This document shows, piece by piece, positions 1-13,384 of a stretch of 24,000 nucleotides of DNA (positions are counted from its first letter, which is position 1; each line of letters starts with the position of its first letter). Both the position numbers and the translations under genes were made by a program. Under the pieces are notes generated by a model. It was not told where the DNA came from. It ran no database searches and worked only from the letters and a program-made list of their open reading frames with translations. This DNA comes from Rhodospirillaceae bacterium (GTDB taxonomy: Bacteria; Pseudomonadota; Alphaproteobacteria; Rhodospirillales; JABHCV01): the NCBI GenBank assembly GCA_013204045.1, contig JABMOQ010000007.1, positions 58,817-82,816 of the forward strand, written 5' to 3'.

Positions 1-525
1 GAACGGGTGCGCCGGATCGACGGCCAGCGGCGTCAACACCGGGAACACCTGCTCCATGAAATGGCCTTCCAGCCACAACATGTCTTCGTTGGACAACTCG
101 CCCGAGCCCAGCACAGAAATGCCGGCGTCCCGCAACTCCCCCAACAGGCCCTCCAGGCATATCTGTTGATCGGCCATCAGTTGCCCGGCCGATTGATGAA
201 TGGCCTGTAACTGTTCATCGGGTGTCAGGCCATCCTGGCTGGGCGTCTTGATGCCGGCGCGTACCTGCCCCTTCAAACCGGCGACGCGGACCATATAAAA
301 TTCATCCAGATTGACCGCCGAAATCGACAGGAAGCGCAGGCGCTCCAATAGCGGATGCGCCAAATTGCGGGCTTCCTCGAGGACACGGGTGTTGAACGCC
401 AGCCATGACAGCTCGCGGTTGATGAATCGCTCACTTTTTGAGGCGTCAATCGGTCCGCCCACTGGCAAAGGTTCTACCAGTTTGGCCACCGGGGGGATAT
501 TTATACTGCCGGGTTTCTTGCTCAT
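1..525 (-). CDS. ppk: polyphosphate kinase 1, N-terminal part (gene continues past the left window edge)
   Basis: This gene is absent from the ORF track because it runs off the window. My reverse-strand translation from the ATG at 525-523 reads [91 protein letters not shown]... and stays open to position 1 (175 codons). [18 protein letters not shown] and [21 protein letters not shown] are the conserved PPK1 N-domain signature as I recall it. Confidence 0.85.
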
Positions 526-658
526 GTGACTGATTCTACAGATAATTTATTGGAATGTCATGCTGTGCCTAATTTCGACAAATCTGGCAGAAGCCCGGCG
601 ACTTCCCGATTGAAACCCGCGATGAATACCAGGATTTAAAATAAGCATGCTGGCGAAG

Positions 659-1084
659 TCAGGCTGGCTTTGGCACAACGAGGACTTTTTCGGTGCGGTA
701 GCGTCCTTCACATTCATCAACAGATGTTTTAACGATGGCGGCCATCATCCCCAGATCATGTTTCAGCCAACGTTCTTTATAGTCATCGGGTATTTTTGCT
801 TCGGTTAATGACTCTGCAAGCAGGTTGTGACGAATCATGAAAACCTCTTCGGTAATATAAAGATGTTGATGGGCGCGCATGGGTAAGCGGCCGCAAAAAC
901 CCGCAGGTTTCTGACCGAATAAATCGGCCATGAAGTCGGTCTGTTGATCTTCCAGAACCCAACGCTCCACGCCGACAAAGAATCCTTTTAACCAGGGATG
1001 GGAAAGCAACTTGTCATAAAGAATTTTGTGCACCCGCTTGATGCAGTCTTTACCTCCAATTTCATCAATAAATGACAGCGGCAT
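659..1084 (-). CDS. truncated (2-on-2) hemoglobin-like globin
   Basis: The 141-aa ORF shows the trHb pattern: IGG near the N-terminus, V..ILYDKLL.HP.L..FF, Q.DF....G, and M..AH..L.IT...F followed by L..SL.EA.IP. AGGAG lies about 9 nt upstream of the ATG. It is the last gene of a same-strand cluster with the reductase and the CDGSH protein. Confidence 0.6.
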   Translation of the reverse strand: MPLSFIDEIGGKDCIKRVHKILYDKLLSHPWLKGFFVGVERWVLEDQQTDFMADLFGQKPAGFCGRLPMRAHQHLYITEEVFMIRHNLLAESLTEAKIPDDYKERWLKHDLGMMAAIVKTSVDECEGRYRTEKVLVVPKPA

Positions 1085-1115
1085 GCGACAATTCTCCTAA
1101 AGAAATCAGACTGCC

Positions 1116-2105
1116 CTAAGACCTGGGCTGTTTACGCAAATCTTTGAGCTCATACGGATCCGTATATATATCTACCACCTCGGCGCTTGCCGCCAATGCC
1201 CGGTCTTTGGCGCTGTTTACCATCGGCGGATACCCGCACAAAAATACGCGCCAGTCTTTCAAATCCGGCAGGTCGGAAAACGCAACGTCGTCCGCCCTGC
1301 CTTTACGGTATCCTTCAGGCTCGGCCTGGCGCGAAACACAGGGAATATAATGGAAATTATCATGGGCCGCTTGCAGGGCGCGCAGCGTGTCGCCCAGATA
1401 AAGCCCGGCCACTGTCTGGCTGCCGTGGTAGAGACGGACCCGTGCCGTATGTCCCGAAAAAAGCGCATCCCTTGCAATACCAATAAGTGGTGCAAGGCCG
1501 GTACCATTACCGATGAGAAGCATATTTTGATCGGCGCGGCCCGGTTGATAAAAACAATTACCCATTGGACCTTGCACACCCAGATGATCCCCTGGCTTCA
1601 GGTCATCCATGATCCAATTGCTCATCTGGCCTCGTTCAAGGCGCTTAATATGAAATTCAAGACGGCTATCCATTTTTGGCACACTGGCCAGTGAATAGCT
1701 GCGGGCCAACCCATCTTCGCGGCGCAAATTCATGAATTGGCCGGCGCGGTAATAGAGGGGGGTCGTCGGTTCCAGGAAAACCCGGCAGATATCTTGCTGC
1801 AGATATTCAATGTCCTGCACCACAGTCGGGCCGAACAAATCCTGCTGGTCTATATTGACGACGCGCATATCCGATGTTGGCTGGCATACACAAGGCAGGA
1901 AATGTCCCTGGGCCGCCATGGATTCCCGCAAACCATCCTGGGCGAGCGCTGGCACGTCGCCTTCCTCCACCCGCATGACGCAGGTTACGCAAACCCCCAT
2001 CTTGCAGGAATACGGGACGTCCTGCCCATTTTCGAGCAACACTTCAAGGACCGTTTGGCCGGCCCTGCAAGGAAAGACGCGGTTATAAAAGTGTAAGCTG
2101 ACCAT
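1116..2105 (-). CDS. 2Fe-2S ferredoxin / FNR-family NAD(P)H oxidoreductase fusion (reductase component)
   Basis: The N-terminus has a plant-type ferredoxin cysteine motif (SCKMGVCVTCV...PCVC). It is followed by the FAD-binding RSYSLAS motif and the NAD(P)-binding LIGNGTGLAPL motif. The ORF is 329 aa. Confidence 0.85.
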   Translation of the reverse strand: MVSLHFYNRVFPCRAGQTVLEVLLENGQDVPYSCKMGVCVTCVMRVEEGDVPALAQDGLRESMAAQGHFLPCVCQPTSDMRVVNIDQQDLFGPTVVQDIEYLQQDICRVFLEPTTPLYYRAGQFMNLRREDGLARSYSLASVPKMDSRLEFHIKRLERGQMSNWIMDDLKPGDHLGVQGPMGNCFYQPGRADQNMLLIGNGTGLAPLIGIARDALFSGHTARVRLYHGSQTVAGLYLGDTLRALQAAHDNFHYIPCVSRQAEPEGYRKGRADDVAFSDLPDLKDWRVFLCGYPPMVNSAKDRALAASAEVVDIYTDPYELKDLRKQPRS

Positions 2106-2123
2106 AATGGCGGATTGCAGGAT

Positions 2124-2369
2124 TTACAGGCTGTTATGGGTGCTGTCGCAAATGGCGCCGCGCTTGCTGGCCTTGCAGCCACAAAAGGATACCCTTTTGG
2201 TCGCTTCCGCCGTGTAGAGCACGGGTTTAATGCCGGTGCCTTCGTGGGAACCATCGCAAAAAGGCTGCGTCTTGCTGCGACCACAGGCACACCAATTATA
2301 GGTTTTGCCTTCTTCTACTTCCTCAAAATAGGGGAAGGGTTGGGCTACTACAGGATCGGTCATTGACAA
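2124..2369 (-). CDS. CDGSH iron-sulfur domain protein (two CDGSH-type motifs)
   Basis: The 81-aa ORF contains CACGRSKTQPFCDGSH and a second, degenerate copy, CGCKASKRGAICDSTH. An alternative ATG lies two codons in (2363). Confidence 0.85.
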   Translation of the reverse strand: MSMTDPVVAQPFPYFEEVEEGKTYNWCACGRSKTQPFCDGSHEGTGIKPVLYTAEATKRVSFCGCKASKRGAICDSTHNSL

Positions 2370-2738
2370 AACTCCATGTTTGAATGGTCAAAATACAAGT
2401 GTCGTCTGGTTGGCAAAAGAATAGAATCTATAAAGGTTTTCAAAGCATTAATGGACGATACGGGGAGCAGTAAAAATCGACAAAATCTAACTTGGGGGGT
2501 GGCCAGTCCACCTACAAGGTATGAATTAAGCAGCCCATGGAAATTCTGCCATCTGCGGTCTTTAAATGCCCGCCTTCCGCTCAAGAGCGGCCATCGTCAC
2601 CCGTTCCCGAAATTGGGTGAAATTCTATCCTCCCCGCAAAATTTTCCGGTTAAGGGCGAAATAAACCTTGAATTGGTGATGGATTCTACAATCTGACAAC
2701 TAGATGGAAATTCTTTTCTTCATTTCAAGGAGGTCTCG

Positions 2739-4241
2739 ATGCTCAAGAAAAGTCCCGTTGATGCTAAAATGTTTCAGCAAATGGTCGACAACATCCCGGT
2801 CAACGTCATGATCTGTGACCTCAAGGATTTCCGCATCACCTATATGAACCGGACCAGCCTGGACACCCTGCGCACCATTGAAAAGTTGCTACCGTGCCGG
2901 GCCGACGAAATGCTGGGTCAGTGCATCGATATTTTCCATAAAGCCCCCGAGCATCAGCGCCGCCTGCTGGCCGATCCCAGAAACCTGCCGTTCCAGTCCA
3001 ATATCAAGCTGGGTGATGAAACCCTTGATCTGCTGGTTACCGCCATTACCGACAGTGGCGGCAAGTATATTGCACCGATGCTGACGTGGAGCGTCATCAC
3101 CGACAAGATCAAGGCCGAAGAAGCAACCAACCGCCAGGAGCAAATGCTCGATCAGATGCCCATCAACGTCATGTTCCTGGAGCCGGAAAACTTCAACATC
3201 ACCTACGTCAACAAGACCAGTACTGATACCCTGAGGCCCCTGGAATCCCTGCTCCCCTGCAAAGTCGATAATCTGGTTGGCCAATGTGTCGATATCTTCC
3301 ATAAACACCCGGCCCATCAACGTGGTATTCTGTCGGACCCGGCAAATCTGCCCCATAACGCCAAGATCATGCTCGGTGAAGAAACCCTTGATCTGAGAGT
3401 CAACGCCATCAACAGCAAGGAAGGCAAATACATCGGCGCCATGCTGTCATGGTCGGTGGTTACCAGGCAGGTTAACATGGCCAATAACTTCGAGGCCAAT
3501 ATCAAGGGCGTCGTTAATTCTGTTTCGGCGGCCTCGACCCAGATGCAATCAACTGCCGAATCCATGGCCGCCACGGCCGAAGAAACCAACAATCAGGCTT
3601 CGGCCGTTGCCGCCGCGTCGGAACAGTTGGGCGCGTCGGTCAATGAAATCTCGCAACAGGTCAGCCGTTCGTCGACCATTGCCGCCACGGCCGTTGAAGA
3701 GGCCGACCGTTCCGACAAGATGATCCAGGGGTTGGCCGAAGCCGCCCAGCGGATCGGAGAGGTCGTCGGCTTGATCACCGACATCGCATCACAGACCAAC
3801 CTGCTGGCGCTTAACGCGACCATCGAGGCCGCCCGCGCCGGTGATGCCGGCAAGGGCTTCGCCGTGGTGGCAAGTGAAGTTAAAAACCTTGCCAGCCAAA
3901 CCGCCAAGGCGACGGACGAAATTTCCGGGCAGATCAACGCCATCCAGGGGGCAACGTCTGATGCGGTTTCTGCCATTCAGGGAATTTCCAAGACCATCAA
4001 TGAAATCAGCGAGATTTCAACCGCCATATCGGCGTCGGTCGAGGAACAAAGCGCGGCGACCCAGGAAGTGACCGGCAACATCACCGGCGTCACCACCGCA
4101 TCCGGCGAAACCGGGCAGGCCGCCAATCAGGTTCTGGAAGCGGCACGCGAACTGTCACAACAGGCTGAGCATCTGGGCGTACAGGTCGATGACTTCCTGG
4201 TCGAAATTCGCGAAGAGGGCGACTCCTCAAAAAAAAAGTAG
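2739..4241 (+). CDS. soluble methyl-accepting chemotaxis protein with two tandem PAS domains (Aer2-like PAS, no TM or HAMP region seen)
   Basis: AGGAGG lies upstream of the ATG. Two paralogous PAS modules share I/VDIFHK.P.HQR..L.DP.NLP.......LG.ETLDL.V.AI....GKYI..ML.WSV.T. The canonical MCP signalling hairpin [34 protein letters not shown] follows. No hydrophobic segment is present. The protein ends ...EEGDSSKKK*. Confidence 0.95.
4229..4238 (+). other. A9 homopolymer forming an in-frame A_AAA_AAG slippery heptamer directly before the MCP stop codon (candidate -1 recoding or transcriptional slippage site)
   Basis: Sequence 4227-4241 reads tca aaa aaa aag tag in the MCP frame. A_AAA_AAG (4232-4238) is the dnaX-type -1 frameshift heptamer. 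A GAGGG SD-like element lies at 4215-4219, 12 nt upstream. The presence of the motif is certain; its function is inference. Confidence 0.45.
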
Positions 4242-7459: not shown

Positions 7460-8001
7460 TCCTTGTCCTCCATAGCGGTCGCTTTATTGGTCCATTTAAT
7501 GACGTAGAATGTACCCGATAGGAGCGTCGTTACGGCAACAATGACCACCATCATGTCCAAGAATACGCCCATGTCCACGTTAAATCCAAGGCCACCCAAA
7601 ACCAGAGCCGCCAGGACAATCTGTGCGAATGTATTGATCTTGCTGATTAACAACGGCTCCATGGACAATGACAGGGTTACCGTCTGAAACACCAGGGCGC
7701 CACCGATAATCAGGGCATCGCGGAAAACCACCAGAATAACCAGCCAACTGGCCAAATGCTCGCCAAGGCCGAGAGCAATGTAAATACATACCAGCAGCGC
7801 CTTGTCGGCCAACGGATCCAGATAGCGGCCGAGTTCGGTTTCCATATCAAACCGCTTGGCAATATATCCATCGATGGCATCGCTGACCCCGGCGGCCATG
7901 AACAGCCAGAATGCCGCCAGCATCCGGTCATTGAGTATCAACCAAACGGTTACGGGGACCGCCGCCATTCTGGCGATACTGATAAAATTAGGGATATTCA
8001 C
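7456..8001 (-). CDS. pgsA: CDP-alcohol phosphatidyltransferase (phosphatidylglycerophosphate synthase-like)
   Basis: The ORF has NIPNFISIARM and the CDP-alcohol motif DAIDGYIAKRFDMETELGRYLDPLADK. The ORF track starts it at 8031. I prefer the GTG at 8001-7999 because it forms a GTGA overlap with the upstream gene's stop codon (8000-7998). Confidence 0.85.
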   Translation of the reverse strand: MNIPNFISIARMAAVPVTVWLILNDRMLAAFWLFMAAGVSDAIDGYIAKRFDMETELGRYLDPLADKALLVCIYIALGLGEHLASWLVILVVFRDALIIGGALVFQTVTLSLSMEPLLISKINTFAQIVLAALVLGGLGFNVDMGVFLDMMVVIVAVTTLLSGTFYVIKWTNKATAMEDKE

Positions 8002-9110
8002 GGGCTGCCTGATTTCAGGACGAGCACCCAATCGTCGCCTTCCCGATTGATGGCAAGGTCCGCCTGCTCCAGGGCCAGGGCAAGTTGCTCAGGTTGGCCA
8101 ATGTAATTCAGATTCACCCGTGCTTCGTCCAATGACAAAATGACCAGGTCGGACTTGCGGATAACCGCGACACCGCCAAGGCGGCTCCGTATTTCCAACC
8201 AATCTTGCAATCCCTTGATCCTGATTTTCACGGCAATCACGGCCTGCCTGCCGAATTGCAGGACATTGTCACGCTTCCAGTTGTCTTGTATCTGGCGTGT
8301 CAATTCGATGGTCGCCCTAAGCAGCAACTCATCCAGACTTTCACCATCGGCCGAGGCAAAGCTTTTGACCGTGGTTTGCTCCTGCATGGCAGAGCCATAA
8401 CGGGTGACATAAACTTCCACCTCGGGGCGGATGCGGTCGGTGTTCAGGATCGCCTGGGCTACCAGCGTATCACCGGCGTCATAGCGCCCGGCGATTGCCG
8501 CCAAACGCTGCTCATCACCGGCCACCGCCTGCTCGGGTCCGATGGTGGCGATATCAGAGAGATCACCCTTGGGTAACAGCGTCGGCACCAGAGAAAACTG
8601 CGGTGGGTTTTTCTTCCACGCGTCCCGCCACGGGTTTGGTTCGTCCCAGAGCAAAAGGGCACCGGCAGCCTGAAAAACAGGCAACACCAGCACCGGCTTC
8701 GATGTGGTTTCGGCATACGGAATCGCCAGATCAATCATCAGGCGGCGCACATCGTCGGACTTGAAACGGTAATTCAGGGACGCCAGATAACGCACCGCCG
8801 AAGCCTTTTCCTCGGCAACCTCGAAATCCTGGACGAGGGCGGAAATCTGAACATTTCTGGAATCCGGCAACCGGTTGGCATCGACGCTGAGGGTCAGGCG
8901 CTCCAGCAAGCGGCGGAAGGCCGTTTGTTCGCCCTGCGCCAGCGCCTTGTCGCGGGCTTCTGCCGTCGATGCGGCGGTAACATCAACGGTGACGCCGCGG
9001 ACCTCGAAAACACGCTGATCTTCAGCCGCCAGCGAAACCGACGAAAGGACCTGAAAAACAGCCAAAATCGCTAAAACGCGTGTGGTCCGCCTCGGACGCT
9101 GATCGGTCAT
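7998..9110 (-). CDS. DUF2066-type secreted protein
   Basis: The 370-aa ORF has a signal-peptide-like N-terminus (RVLAILAVFQVLSSVSLAAE). FEVRGVTVDV...A..A...A......AF..LLERLT follows, which I associate with DUF2066 proteins found next to purM in Alphaproteobacteria. The assignment is from recollection and has not been searched. Confidence 0.65.
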   Translation of the reverse strand: MTDQRPRRTTRVLAILAVFQVLSSVSLAAEDQRVFEVRGVTVDVTAASTAEARDKALAQGEQTAFRRLLERLTLSVDANRLPDSRNVQISALVQDFEVAEEKASAVRYLASLNYRFKSDDVRRLMIDLAIPYAETTSKPVLVLPVFQAAGALLLWDEPNPWRDAWKKNPPQFSLVPTLLPKGDLSDIATIGPEQAVAGDEQRLAAIAGRYDAGDTLVAQAILNTDRIRPEVEVYVTRYGSAMQEQTTVKSFASADGESLDELLLRATIELTRQIQDNWKRDNVLQFGRQAVIAVKIRIKGLQDWLEIRSRLGGVAVIRKSDLVILSLDEARVNLNYIGQPEQLALALEQADLAINREGDDWVLVLKSGSP

Positions 9111-9115
9111 TGCAA

Positions 9116-9131
9116 ACAGCCCCAGATAAGT
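9116..9131 (+). repeat. left copy of the boundary direct repeat (att-like)
   Basis: The sequence is ACAGCCCCAGATAAGT, starting 6 nt beyond the DUF2066 start codon. It matches 11694-11710 except for one extra A. Confidence 0.6.
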
Positions 9132-9244
9132 TATTGTCGAATATATTTCATTATTTACAGTGAGTTATCAATTTATAATTAATGAAAACCATTCACACAT
9201 TTTTCACACAAGCACATGAAACAATGATGAATACACTTTACACT

Positions 9245-9263
9245 TTTACACATATTTCACACA
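9245..9263 (+). repeat. left copy of the internal 19-nt direct repeat TTTACACATATTTCACACA, within a cluster of TTYACAC motifs
   Basis: It matches TTTACACATATTTTACACA at 11620-11638 at 18 of 19 positions. Further TTCACAC / TTACAC copies lie at about 9192-9263. Confidence 0.55.
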
Positions 9264-9438
9264 AAAAAGGCCCTACCGAACTGCACAATGAGTTATCTGT
9301 TCTCCGCCAGCAACAGAACAAATTTCGTAATTAACTAAATCTGGAAATAATCTAAGCGGATGTTGGCCTTTATTCCATTAACTCGTTAAACTGCGCTTAC
9401 TTATCGTCTTCCTACCGCCGTAACAACAGGAGTGTAAT

Positions 9439-10197
9439 TTGAGTTGGTGCGATAAAATGGCTTCTACGCCAAGTGTTGGCTTCAAACTCGATCACCACTT
9501 TGCTACGGGTGATGCAATTTTTGACGCTCTTGATCCCATTCTGGATAAGTGGGTTGATGGTGAAAAACAATTGTTCACTGTAAAAAAACACGAATCATTT
9601 TCTGTATCATTCGATACAATTGACGGGTTCGTGTATGGAATAGAACCGTCGAAAGTCCATATTTCTTTCAGTCATAAAATGAAAGCAAAACCTGTGAGTG
9701 GTGGACCACCAATAATGGAAATGCTTTCTAGTCCATTACCGTTTACAGAATTGCTGCCTAATGTTTCGGAGCGACTATCTACTACGACCTTGCTTCTACC
9801 TGGCGCCAGCACCCGAAATATTCAACGTGTCGGAATTGTTACTAGTACGGCGGTCGCCGAAGATGAAGTTCCGCCCGGTATTGAGCGATTTATCAAATAC
9901 ATCGGCCGTCCATGGAATAGCTCTGCCGAATGTTTTTCGTTTAGCATCACCACTGAGGTCAATAGCACCTCGGATTGGTCAGACCGATGCATTCACACCT
10001 TAGTTAAACTCGAGGAGCCTGAAGAATTGCTTACCATTGTATTTGACTGGCAGAGGAAATTTACCTCTGGACGGCCAATAACCTCTAATTCATTGAAAGA
10101 GATTTTGGTGAAAGCTGAGAAAGATTCATTAGATTATTTTGAGGATGTTGCAGAAGGTAGCAGATTCGATGAAGACATCATCAACAGCACAACTTGA
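9439..10197 (+). CDS. hypothetical protein, islet gene A (no recognised domain)
   Basis: The ORF is 252 aa. AGGAG (9428-9432) lies 6 nt upstream of the TTG start at 9439; an alternative ATG is at 9457. It has low GC like the rest of the islet. It overlaps the next ORF. I see no nucleotide-binding, nuclease or TM motif. Confidence 0.6.
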   Translation: MSWCDKMASTPSVGFKLDHHFATGDAIFDALDPILDKWVDGEKQLFTVKKHESFSVSFDTIDGFVYGIEPSKVHISFSHKMKAKPVSGGPPIMEMLSSPLPFTELLPNVSERLSTTTLLLPGASTRNIQRVGIVTSTAVAEDEVPPGIERFIKYIGRPWNSSAECFSFSITTEVNSTSDWSDRCIHTLVKLEEPEELLTIVFDWQRKFTSGRPITSNSLKEILVKAEKDSLDYFEDVAEGSRFDEDIINSTT

Positions 10198-10648
10198 GTT
10201 CACGTATTCGGCCCCTGAACCTCTTTCCGGAAAAGAAGATGATTCTTTTGTGTCGAATTCTACGGGAACGGCAACTTCTAATGCGGGCAACGTATCCCAG
10301 TTTCCGAAATTTAGTGGCTATAGGGAAGTGTTGGCAACTACTTCCCGAATGGCTGGGCGGATCAACGCTGCCAGCGTTTCCGACCAAGAATGTCAAACCC
10401 TTCTAAGGGAACGCCAAGATCTCTTAGACAAAAACTTTGATGATACAATCACACGAAAAGAGAAGATCAGGCTTGAGTATATTCGATGGTCGCTCGACAG
10501 AATTGAAGACTCTAAATTTGGCCAGACACTTGATATGTTGGAAAATTCAGTCAGCAAGTATGAGCAATTCTTGTCAGATGTACGCAAGCTTGAAAACCAG
10601 CTGAAGCAGCACTTGAAGAAGTCGCGCTCGAAAAAGAAACTCAAATGA
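10169..10648 (+). CDS. hypothetical protein, islet gene B (Ser/Thr-rich N-terminus, predicted helical or coiled-coil C-terminus, basic tail)
   Basis: The ORF track starts it at 10139 (169 aa). An ATG at 10169 is preceded by AAGG (159 aa). It overlaps gene A by 29-59 nt. Its stop overlaps the gene C start as ATGA (10645-10648). The C-terminal half (QECQTLLRERQDLLDK...KYEQFLSDVRKLENQLKQHLKKSRSKKKLK) looks heptad-like. Confidence 0.55.
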   Translation: MKTSSTAQLEFTYSAPEPLSGKEDDSFVSNSTGTATSNAGNVSQFPKFSGYREVLATTSRMAGRINAASVSDQECQTLLRERQDLLDKNFDDTITRKEKIRLEYIRWSLDRIEDSKFGQTLDMLENSVSKYEQFLSDVRKLENQLKQHLKKSRSKKKLK

Positions 10649-11427
10649 CTAGCAGAAAGGAAAGTAACGGAAATAACCTTCCAGTCCCGGCGCCAGAATT
10701 AGACGAACCACTTGTAACGAGATCAAAAGTCCCTGTCGGCAAAGAATACGGAGAGTATAAGGAATATCTTCGGTATGACTTTTTCCACTCGTGTTCTTAT
10801 TGTACTATGTCAGAAGCTGAGGCTCAAGCAATACGGTTTGTTATCGACCATTACGAACCCCGTAAAGCTCGACCAGAATTGGTGCATGAATACGAAAATC
10901 TTATGTATTCATGCGACGAGTGCAACGTAAGGAAAGGTGATCGTTGTCCACCTGCTGAAGCCCGGGCAGACAATTATCGATTTTTCAGGCCAGACCGAGA
11001 CAAATATCGGGAGCACTTTCAGGGAGATGGCGTTCGACTAAAATCAAAAACCAATGTAGGCAAATACTCTATTCAGGCGTTAGACCTGAATCGATTAACT
11101 CTCCGTAGGCTTCGAGATATACGAAAACGCCTGACGAATTGTGACCGTCATGTGATAGAAGGCGTGTTGGGGCTTAGAAAGTTCCACATTGATCGATTGC
11201 CACCTAGCATAAAGGGCTCAGCTGCTAGAGCAATTCGGCAAGTGGTTGCTGTATCGAACGAACTCGCCGATGGTATCGATGATTTACTTCGAGACTGCGC
11301 CTCTTCTCCCTTAATCGATCCTGACCTAGACTCAAATTCGCGACTTCAAGAAAGAACCGCCAAATTGAAACAGTTAAAGGCTATTTATCCGGGAACCTGG
11401 AGAGCACCTAGAAAAAATCAGAGTTAA
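10645..11427 (+). CDS. HNH (beta-beta-alpha-Me) endonuclease with an uncharacterised C-terminal domain of about 160 aa, islet gene C
   Basis: The HNH core is complete: C50-x2-C53, D68-H69, N85, C90-x2-C93-N94 (HSCSYCTMSEAEAQAIRFVIDHYEPRKARPELVHEYENLMYSCDECNVRKGD, nt 10792-10941). It is translationally coupled to gene B. Confidence 0.85.
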   Translation: MTSRKESNGNNLPVPAPELDEPLVTRSKVPVGKEYGEYKEYLRYDFFHSCSYCTMSEAEAQAIRFVIDHYEPRKARPELVHEYENLMYSCDECNVRKGDRCPPAEARADNYRFFRPDRDKYREHFQGDGVRLKSKTNVGKYSIQALDLNRLTLRRLRDIRKRLTNCDRHVIEGVLGLRKFHIDRLPPSIKGSAARAIRQVVAVSNELADGIDDLLRDCASSPLIDPDLDSNSRLQERTAKLKQLKAIYPGTWRAPRKNQS

Positions 11428-11619
11428 TTGGCACTGGAAAAATGTTCTCTATTGACTAGACCCAAGCCTATGATACTCCACTTTTTTGTGTCTGATGCAG
11501 ATGACAAGCAGACGTATCTACTCGGAATCAGCATAGGTGCGAATCTAGAAGGGTGAAGATACATATGATTTGGTTCACACGCAAAAAATCCAAAAAGACT
11601 TATATTCCCTACACTTACG

Positions 11620-11639
11620 TTTACACATATTTTACACAC
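11620..11639 (+). repeat. right copy of the internal direct repeat (TTTACACATATTTTACACAC)
   Basis: See 9245-9263. It has the same orientation and lies 55 nt (11639 to 11694) inside the right boundary repeat. A TTCACAC copy is at 11573-11579. Confidence 0.55.
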
Positions 11640-11693
11640 GAATAAAAAGTGCTGAAAAAGTGTTTATTTTCAATATGTTTAGAAAAAATAGAC

Positions 11694-11710
11694 ACAGCCC
11701 CAGATAAAGT
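11694..11710 (+). repeat. right copy of the boundary direct repeat (att-like)
   Basis: The sequence is ACAGCCCCAGATAAAGT, 47 nt upstream of the purM ATG. Confidence 0.6.
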
Positions 11711-11756
11711 ATCTTCTGCTTTCGAATTTGAAACGGGAACTTAGCACACCTGACGG

Positions 11757-12824
11757 ATGGAGGAAGCCATTAACGGCCTCAGTTACAAGGATGCGGGCGT
11801 CGATATCGACGCAGGCGATGCCCTGGTCGAGGCCATCAAGCCGCTGGCCAAGTCAACGGCGCGTGACGGCGTGGCCTCCGGGCTCGGCGGATTCGGCGCC
11901 ATGTTTGATCTGAAAGCCGCCGGTTTCAAGGATCCGGTGCTGGTCGCCGGGACCGACGGCGTCGGCACCAAGCTGAAAGTCGCCATCGAAGCGGGCAAAC
12001 ATGACACCGTCGGCATCGATCTGGTCGCCATGTGCGTCAACGACCTGATTGTACAGGGCGCCGAGCCGCTTTTCTTCCTCGATTACTTCGCCACCGCCAA
12101 GCTTGACGTTGCCGCCGCAACGGCCATCGTTGCCGGCATCGCCGAAGGGTGCAAACAGGGCGGTTGCGCGCTGATCGGCGGCGAGACGGCGGAAATGCCC
12201 GGCATGTACGCCAAGGGCGACTATGACCTGGCCGGGTTCTGTGTCGGCGCCGTCGAACGCGCCGATATCCTGACCGGTGATAAAGTCGCCGCAGGCGACG
12301 TGATTCTTGGCCTGGCGTCGAGCGGCCTGCATTCCAACGGGTTTTCCCTGGTCCGCCGGGTGGTCGATATCAGCGGGCTTGATTACGCATCGGACGCCCC
12401 TTTCCGGCCCGCCACGTCGCTGGCCGATGCCCTGCTCGAGCCGACCCGAATTTATGTCAAAAGCTGCCTCGCCGCCATTGCTGCCGGCGGCGTCCATGGC
12501 CTCGCCCACATCACCGGCGGCGGTTTGGTTGAAAATATCCCGCGCGTGCTTCCCGAAAATCTTGATGCCGACCTGGACGCCGCCACATGGAAACTGCCGA
12601 CGGTGTTTTCGTGGCTCGCCAAAGCCGGCGGCATCGCGCCAGAGGAAATGGCCCGCACCTTCAACTGCGGTATCGGCATGGCCGTCATCGTCGATGCCAA
12701 ACGTGCCGTTGATCTGACAAAAATCCTGACCGACAACGGCGAAACCGTCTTCACCCTGGGCACCGTGGTCGCCCGCGGCGTGGGCGCGGTGACCATCGGG
12801 AATATCGACTCATGGCGCGGCTGA
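11757..12824 (+). CDS. purM: phosphoribosylformylglycinamidine cyclo-ligase (AIR synthetase)
   Basis: The 355-aa ORF starts [20 protein letters not shown] and contains GLGGFGA.F, DGVGTKL, and [21 protein letters not shown]. Confidence 0.97.
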
Positions 12825-13384
12825 AACTGGCGGTCCTGATTTCGGGCCGGGGCTCGAACCTGCAATCGCTGATCGATGCCTGTGCCGATCCTGAATTTCC
12901 CGCCGAGATCGTCAGCGTCATATCCAATGTGCCCGACGTTCAGGGGCTCGAACGGGCGGCCATGGCCGACATCAGCGCCGCCGTCATCGACCACCGGAAT
13001 TTCGACAGCCGGGAAGCCTTCGAAGCGACCCTCAATGCGGCCCTTGATGACAGCGGCGCCGACCTGGTCTGTCTGGCCGGGTTCATGCGGCTGCTGACCG
13101 CCGAATTTGTCAACCGCTGGCGCGACCGGCTGATCAACATCCACCCGTCCCTGCTGCCCGATTACAAGGGCCTGCACGTGCACGAACGGGTGATCGCCGC
13201 CGGTGAGGCGTTTTCCGGCTGCACGGTCCATTACGTGCGCCCCGACATGGACTCCGGCCCCATCATCACCCAGGCCAAAGTCCCGGTCGAACCCGGCGAT
13301 ACCGCCGATACCCTGGCCGCCCGGGTGCTCGCCCAGGAGCACATAATCTACCCCGAAGCGGTCAGGCAGATAGCCGAGGCCTAG
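12812..13384 (+). CDS. purN: phosphoribosylglycinamide formyltransferase
   Basis: The 190-aa ORF contains [25 protein letters not shown], and [13 protein letters not shown]. It overlaps the purM end by 13 nt. Confidence 0.95.

Follow-up and report, generated by a model that had tools for sequence, protein, structure and literature searches.

A mobile three-gene module that joins a divergent PtuB-type HNH nuclease to two proteins of no recognized family: a candidate defense cassette lacking an ATPase

What do three overlapping genes of foreign base composition do between the housekeeping genes of an alphaproteobacterium? We addressed this question for a locus within a 24,000-nucleotide (nt) stretch of DNA from a Rhodospirillaceae bacterium (assembly GCA_013204045.1, contig JABMOQ010000007.1, positions 58,817 to 82,816; the whole stretch is called the window here, and positions are counted from its first letter), in which genes that we call A, B, and C follow one another from 9439 to 11427. 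With a little better than even confidence, we read them as a self-contained, horizontally mobile module of three proteins built around a nuclease, similar to Septu but without its ATPase, that acts in defense or abortive infection. Behind this reading stand the kinship of C to the nuclease PtuB, the strict linkage of the three genes, an insert that carries no gene besides these three, the foreign origin of the trio, and its association with mobile elements.

The open reading frame (ORF) table of the window lists three same-strand ORFs, at 9439–10197, 10139–10648, and 10645–11427, all on the (+) strand. Gene A (9439–10197; 252 amino acids [aa]) opens with TTG, which we take to be its true start because the N-terminus that it begins, MSWCDKLASTP, is kept in an alignment of 89 homologs; a Shine-Dalgarno AGGAG lies 6 nt before this TTG, at 9428–9432. 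The mechanical ORF of B opens at 10139 and would encode 169 aa, but all homologs begin at the methionine encoded at 10169 (MKTSS...), and gene B was therefore set at 10169–10648 (159 aa). Gene C (10645–11427) encodes 260 aa, and its ATG shares an ATGA with the stop codon of B. The initial annotation of this DNA had described three overlapping same-strand ORFs with a Shine-Dalgarno sequence before A and an ATGA at the junction of B and C, exactly as we find them; of the 29 to 59 nt that it allowed for the A/B overlap, 29 nt is the figure that stands, and the longer form of B that would give the higher value does not.

Protein C offers the firmest link to a known family. Its HNH core, comprising catalytic and zinc-binding residues encoded at 10792–10926 on the (+) strand, is complete, as had been noted before: C50-x2-C53, D68-H69, N85, and C90-x2-C93-N94 are all invariant in 48 homologs, and Pfam HNH matches with an E-value of 1.3e-6. 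The best PADLOC matches of C are PtuB models (E-values of 2.9e-17 to 1e-12), which align to it as far as approximately residue 160. An AlphaFold2 (AF2) model of C (predicted local distance difference test [pLDDT] of 83) was compared with the PDB by Foldseek, and the nine best matches were PtuB chains of Septu and of retron Ec78, Ec83, and I-A complexes (probability of 1.0, template modeling [TM] scores of 0.38 to 0.51, and 185 to 213 aligned columns), with Cas9 HNH domains far behind. Because of these PADLOC and Foldseek matches, C is assigned, on its sequence and predicted fold, to the PtuB-type HNH nucleases as a divergent member at the level of the superfamily. The same alignments overturn the earlier view that the ~160 aa following the HNH core were wholly unrecognized. 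In architecture, C combines a disordered N-terminal stretch with three long C-terminal helices (residues 151–247) and a basic tail (WRAPRK), and Pfam revealed no NUMOD, AP2, or similar domains in it.

The two partners of C resemble nothing that has been named. Protein A had no match in Pfam, NCBIfam, PHROGs, or PADLOC, including when 35 distant members were scanned singly, and its profile retrieved nothing significant from PDB sequences; B, compared with the same four collections and, as a profile, with PDB sequences, likewise matched no family or structure. Extending the comparison to the A and B homologs of five further diverse loci, with all PADLOC models included, yielded no named family either. 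The earlier statement that A and B carry no recognized signatures thus holds, for the window and for five diverse loci, with respect to named defense, phage, and general families. In the PADLOC run on all three proteins, PtuB was reported for C and nothing for A or B, so that the claim of an undescribed system withstands comparison with named systems as far as A and B are concerned and yields in the case of C, which belongs to a named effector family.

The family of A spans 119 clusters at 90% identity and 428 at 50%, and all of its members are ~250 aa long, stand-alone, and unnamed. Its confident AF2 model (pLDDT of 92.3, predicted TM score of 0.88) depicts an alpha/beta fold made of two halves; in each of them, a short and a long helix pack against a beta-sheet. 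Alignments showed invariant PPG, RPW, DRCxH, DWQR, and YFE motifs, and the positions that are invariant in both branches of the family, the second of which is a distant one described below, include PPG, RPW, C184-x-H186, and D203-W-Q-R206. Since C184 and H186 lie together with D203 and Q205 on neighboring strands of the model, they could make a polar site. Foldseek comparison of the A model with the PDB gave a best TM score of less than 0.25, amid scattered START/SRPBCC-like noise. Taken by its sequence, A is a new protein family.

Three further observations concern the fold of A. A Foldseek search of BFVD with the model returned one unnamed phage protein of 202 aa, A0A515MGR4 (E-value of 8e-8, TM scores of 0.48/0.57, 12% identity); it is the sole convincing structural relative of A and could be a phage-borne homolog or a decoy. 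An internal duplication was considered, and alignment of the two halves by hhalign gave no signal. A CHCH zinc site formed by C4, H79, C184, and H186 was ruled out, as C4 and H79 vary in the distant branch.

In protein B, a variable linker of low complexity (~45 aa) connects a short motif at the N-terminus to a helical domain of ~95 aa that is conserved (RLEYIRWSLDRIEDA...), and the chain ends in a basic tail.

Do A, B, and C belong together beyond this one genome? We found 16 genome loci that carry A, and in all 13 that reach past A, homologs of B and then C follow in unchanged order; of the other three, one breaks off where its contig ends, and two hold decayed remnants of the N-terminus of A. 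Look-ups in Bradyrhizobium, Brevundimonas, Mesorhizobium, and metagenome contigs returned the same A-B-HNH order, which holds at every further locus with enough sequence. It is also kept in the distant branch of A (24–26% identity), in which A is followed at three loci by a B-like protein of 148–186 aa and an HNH protein of 233–240 aa, and two look-ups begun from homologs of C both found A and B upstream. The initial annotation's expectation that the three genes would prove co-conserved is thus borne out at all loci that extend far enough. The junctions are similarly kept: A and B overlap (by 29 nt in the window) in 9 of 9 gene calls, and B and C overlap or lie no more than 17 nt apart in 9 of 9, barring an alternative 42-nt call of one sequence. 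Across 21 loci, the pairwise identities of A, B, and C correlate (r = 0.74 to 0.79), with A the most divergent of the three (mean identity of 37.5% versus 48.7% for C). The conserved order, the junctions, and the correlated identities together indicate, at the level of sequence comparison, that the triad is an old unit inherited together.

Individual copies have fates of their own. In one alphaproteobacterial metagenome-assembled genome (MAG), an insertion of ~940 bp (L008, 8564–9502), probably an insertion sequence (IS) element, splits A, which likely leaves this triad copy inactive. The two decayed remnants of A retain 22–35 codons and lie by a tRNA-Leu gene (L015, 8001–8398) and by an integrase and an IS630-like transposase (L016, 6260–9264). 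In a Brevundimonas locus (L020, 12058–13220), a second HNH gene (230 aa) follows a 72-aa ORF ~570 nt downstream of the triad and may belong to a further small nuclease module within this islet.

If the triad is inherited as a unit, where does the DNA that carries it begin and end? A 14-nt direct repeat, ACAGCCCCAGATAA, brackets the genes, its left copy at 9116–9129, as an attL-like core or target duplication, and its right copy, located by repeat search, at 11694–11707. The junction that an uninterrupted site should have was predicted and used to search metagenome contigs, nine of which matched. A conspecific one (L033, FLOH01000281.1, 1–1558) is 99.7% identical to window positions 8786–9129 and 98.9% identical to 11694–12921, contains ACAGCCCCAGATAA once, and lacks 9130–11707, with nothing between the flanks. 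The insertion in the window therefore amounts to 2564 bp plus a 14-nt duplication and contains only A, B, and C, and the empty site gives its exact bounds as 9130–11707; what had been proposed as a small islet is hereby delimited to the base. The foreign composition reported earlier is equally plain, with a guanine-cytosine (GC) content of 0.41–0.45 across 9001–11500 versus ~0.57–0.64 on either side.

The surroundings of the triad in other genomes are of the same kind. At every locus, it is poorer in GC than one flank at least, and usually than both, with differences of up to ~20 points, and its distribution is patchy, covering Alpha- and Betaproteobacteria and other MAGs. In Bradyrhizobium, it occupies a prophage cargo spot between a tape measure gene and a helix-turn-helix (HTH)/integrase region, and in Mesorhizobium, one between lysozyme and integrase. 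At one locus of the distant branch, it adjoins a rolling-circle Rep and an integrase on a small element; on an IMG/VR contig, it adjoins a phage fiber gene and two serine recombinases. Further loci lie in regions rich in IS elements and integrases, and elsewhere, the triad forms solitary islets beside uvrB, aspS, or tRNA genes. One of these loci, L010, has an insert of 2.28 kb (7786–10200) that holds the triad alone, with no integrase, and is flanked on either side by one copy of the 3′ half of tRNA-Gly(CCC); this perfect 54-nt direct repeat is a hallmark of integrase-type insertion. The trio is thus foreign in origin and tied to mobile elements. PADLOC matches among 143 neighboring ORFs from 13 loci comprised AriA-like (two), mad3 (two), mad8 (two), DpdF, MkoA, and a kinase, and two further loci have DUF4062 and SIR2_2 genes in their vicinity.

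Two observations on this sample should be added. The triad flanks in a MAG labeled Flavobacteriaceae (L006) have a GC content of 59–63%, odd for that family, and the contig may be mis-binned; taxonomic breadth beyond Proteobacteria therefore calls for caution. A tRNA-Thr gene lies downstream of C at two loci, at a distance of 64 nt in L013 (10014–10089) and 183 nt in L014 (10153–10227).

Within the window, the insertion point lies between the divergent DUF2066 and purM genes, 6–19 nt upstream of the DUF2066 start codon, which means that the insertion has probably cut the DUF2066 gene off from its native promoter. The left noncoding arm of the insert (9130–9438, [+] strand) is AT-rich; besides the AGGAG, it contains T[TC]ACACA motifs in two pairs (9193/9204 and 9246/9257), and a third pair (11621/11632) lies in the right arm (11428–11693, [+] strand). 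The three pairs, which span 9193–9264 and 11621–11639, share an 11-nt spacing and a single orientation, which leads us to consider them candidate arm-type recombinase, regulator, or operator sites; neither the arms nor these pairs are conserved in the other loci compared. Scans of the insert for Rfam families (E-value up to 1) and tRNAs found none, consensus scans of the arms for promoters and terminators gave nothing useful and no consensus terminator, and no gene is called in the left arm on the identical contig L017 of the Joint Genome Institute (JGI).

The target site itself belongs to a block of ~38 nt (GATCGATCATTGCAAACAGCCCCAGATAAAGTATCTTCT) at window positions 9100–9134 and 11694–11720, identical in the nine metagenome contigs (L030–L038), with neighboring sequence far more divergent (~75% identity in L038). 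The block resembles a conserved regulatory element in front of both purM and the DUF2066 gene, and it has no match in Rfam. Housekeeping genes lie on both sides: on the (−) strand to the left, ending at 9110, are those for the DUF2066 protein, a CDP-alcohol phosphatidyltransferase, an AI-2E transporter, and Hda, and on the (+) strand to the right, from 11757, are purM, purN, and those for a DEAD-box helicase and an ABC-F protein. Another stretch of lower GC content (0.47–0.54) lies at 501–3500 of the window, where a ferredoxin-reductase-type gene (1116–2105, [−] strand) and the gene for a chemoreceptor combining PAS and methyl-accepting chemotaxis protein (MCP) domains (2739–4241) are found.

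How might such a module work? PtuB is reported to depend on PtuA for its function, and PtuAB to nick DNA or to target tRNA-Tyr when in cells (PMC12819146; PMC13376987). In the literature on Septu and type I-A retrons, PtuB is unstable or inactive alone, and its C-terminal part docks onto C-terminal helices of a PtuA dimer (PMC13376987). For the triad, we infer contacts among A, B, and C, a sensor role for A, a trigger, a substrate, and an anti-phage outcome along the following lines. C would be the effector that, once activated, cuts nucleic acid, whether by nicking or degrading DNA or by attacking tRNA as is reported for retron-associated PtuB, and this cutting would halt either phage replication or the infected cell. 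The helical domain of B would take over the docking role of PtuA by holding the long C-terminal helices of C, and the flexible linker and N-terminal motif of B would tether it to A. Globular and the fastest-evolving of the three, A would serve as a sensor or regulator that keeps C silent until it meets a phage cue, and C would be released or activated upon infection. A more specific proposal, which we offer tentatively and rate somewhat below even, is that the trio is a new anti-phage family in which a PtuB-type nuclease is controlled without a nucleoside triphosphatase (NTPase), with A as a direct infection sensor of unseen fold and B as a helical adaptor that substitutes for the docking helices of PtuA.

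Several results weigh against reading the triad as a Septu-like defense module. C scores under the NCBIfam cut-offs, with 27.4 versus 150 bits for PtuB and 29.3 versus 52.15 bits for TIGR02646, and the profile of its family found no chain among PDB sequences, which places it far from solved PtuB proteins by sequence. No similarity between B and the PADLOC PtuA models was detectable, and B as a replacement for the docking helices of PtuA would be an analogy only. A tblastn search with A against 50,697 phage and 72,556 plasmid records gave no match. The scan of 143 neighboring ORFs also turned up integrases and resolvases, and the few defense-type matches are scattered among many housekeeping genes. 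Finally, a defense phenotype is known for no member of the family.

What else could account for a nuclease gene that travels with two small partners and little more? The triad might be a toxin-antitoxin(-chaperone) addiction module that stabilizes its small element, with C as the toxin, B as a labile antitoxin with a disordered N-terminal half, and A as a regulator or chaperone. Selfish stabilization would explain the persistence of the two elements, the window insert and the L010 mini-island, that hold only A, B, and C between att-like repeats; translational coupling is tight, B joins a variable low-complexity half to a compact helical domain, and unrestrained PtuAB is toxic (PMC12819146; PMC13376987). 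However, no component matches a toxin or antitoxin family in Pfam or NCBIfam, A and B lack an HTH or other signature of a DNA-binding autoregulator, and it would be unusual for a type II system to place a nuclease last, behind a first gene of 252 aa. Because phage defense is also a role of many such modules, this explanation overlaps with the defense reading; taken by itself, we regard it as unlikely, though it is the chief alternative. Clearly improbable, in our judgment, is a three-subunit restriction enzyme (modification-dependent, that of type IV and McrA-like, or otherwise directed at DNA) in which A reads DNA or its modification, B bridges, and C cuts, attacking incoming DNA directly instead of through abortive infection. 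Several homologs of C do bear the automatic JGI label "McrA", B and C both end in basic tails, and plasmid-borne HNH relatives of C adjoin an N6 DNA methylase and a histidine-kinase-like ATPase, a sign that DNA-directed systems make use of this HNH clade. Yet Pfam and NCBIfam found no reader domain (SRA, EVE/PUA, winged helix, or others) in A, B, or C, the PDB contains no fold match for the A model, and at no locus examined is a methylase linked to the triad.

The small size of the carrier also brings to mind a selfish mobility cassette, in which the HNH protein together with A and B would drive insertion or homing of an element of 2.3–2.6 kb. HNH nucleases act as homing enzymes elsewhere, and the two independent mini-islands hold A, B, and C alone, without an integrase. 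The evidence from the loci nonetheless runs the other way: the 54-nt tRNA-Gly repeat of L010 speaks for site-specific recombination of the integrase type rather than homing or transposition, elsewhere the triad is ordinary cargo of prophages and islands that have integrases of their own, and the noncoding arms differ between loci. In addition, C falls in the PtuB clade and is always preceded by A and B, unlike the free-standing or intron- or intein-borne HNH genes by which homing endonucleases are recognized, and A has no similarity to recombinases or transposases. Such a cassette is, in our estimate, highly improbable. We give even less credence to ordinary prophage genes, for instance an HNH protein that aids terminase packaging alongside two structural or accessory phage proteins. 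Some loci do lie in prophages, and B has marginal, sub-threshold matches to a small-terminase-like family (E-value of 0.033), but most loci lie outside prophages, the triad sits near lysis, tail-end, or integrase genes rather than near terminase, A is unmatched in the phage genomes searched, and neither A nor B has a PHROG family. The Septu-like defense module remains the explanation that we prefer.

New candidate defense systems are reported often. To our knowledge, every PtuB nuclease described so far is paired with the PtuA ATPase, either in Septu or in a type I-A retron, and the triad would add a regulatory solution for PtuB effectors together with two new protein families, one of them with an unmatched predicted fold. 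If this is true, the PtuB effector would be a portable module that plugs into unrelated sensors, and the triad is small enough to serve as the sole cargo of integrase-less mini-islands. As a candidate defense cassette, it is compact (~2 kb of coding sequence), and the empty site and the tRNA-flanked twin element make it a clean case of a defense-type cassette as sole cargo with no integrase. A description of the triad was found neither in PADLOC-DB 2.0, Pfam (2025), or NCBIfam 20.0 nor in the literature searched, a limited search that is no proof of its being unpublished.

Among known systems, Septu is the closest in outline. The two have in common a PtuB-like protein, as judged for C by hidden Markov models (HMMs) and fold, as well as a compact operon, a nuclease in last place, and residence on mobile DNA; by analogy, C would be expected to need, as PtuB does, partners docking on its C-terminal region (PMC13376987). 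Unlike Septu, the triad has no ABC/AAA ATPase and has two unrelated small proteins instead, it consists of three genes rather than two, and its nuclease, at 260 aa, carries longer C-terminal helices. The absence of the known ATPase partner, already stated in the initial annotation, is confirmed by an insert that holds A, B, and C alone: no PtuA-type ATPase is encoded there, A and B contain no Walker motifs, and neither they nor their homologs from five loci match PADLOC models or a Pfam or NCBIfam ATPase family. Type I-A retrons (Ec78/Eco7 and Ec83), which consist of a reverse transcriptase, a noncoding RNA (ncRNA)/multicopy single-stranded DNA (msDNA), PtuA, and PtuB, share their effector family with C and provide its best structural matches, and a common logic would be that extra components restrain a PtuB nuclease. 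The triad differs from them in lacking reverse transcriptase, ncRNA, and PtuA; no reverse transcriptase domain is found in the ORFs of the insert, and the spacers upstream of the triad elsewhere are only ~90–200 nt long.

For the vehicle, as opposed to the A-B-C genes that it carries, the appropriate comparison is with integrase-less integrative elements such as cis-mobilizable elements (CIMEs). The carrier in the window has direct repeats at both ends and no recombinase inside, and a relative has the empty site; att-like repeats, a sister-strain empty site, arm motifs, and the lack of a recombinase of its own are what it has in common with such elements, and its mobilization would putatively occur in trans.

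The nearest PLSDB relatives of C, on Salipiger pTPRO7 and Bacillus pl192, are 30–34% identical to it over the HNH half and sit in modules of another make-up (L041, 973–6161; L042, 761–6135), which encode a histidine-kinase-like protein (~770–840 aa), a hypothetical protein (~215–227 aa), the HNH protein (~195–205 aa), and an N6 DNA methylase. Kinship between A or B and the small hypothetical protein of these modules was considered and rejected (hhalign probability of <1%). As in the triad, the HNH gene of these plasmid modules follows a small hypothetical gene, with the gene ends overlapping or adjacent; the modules differ in that the partners are a large GHKL-type ATPase and a methylase. That HNH relatives of C are found in a different module supports the view of this HNH clade as a portable effector.

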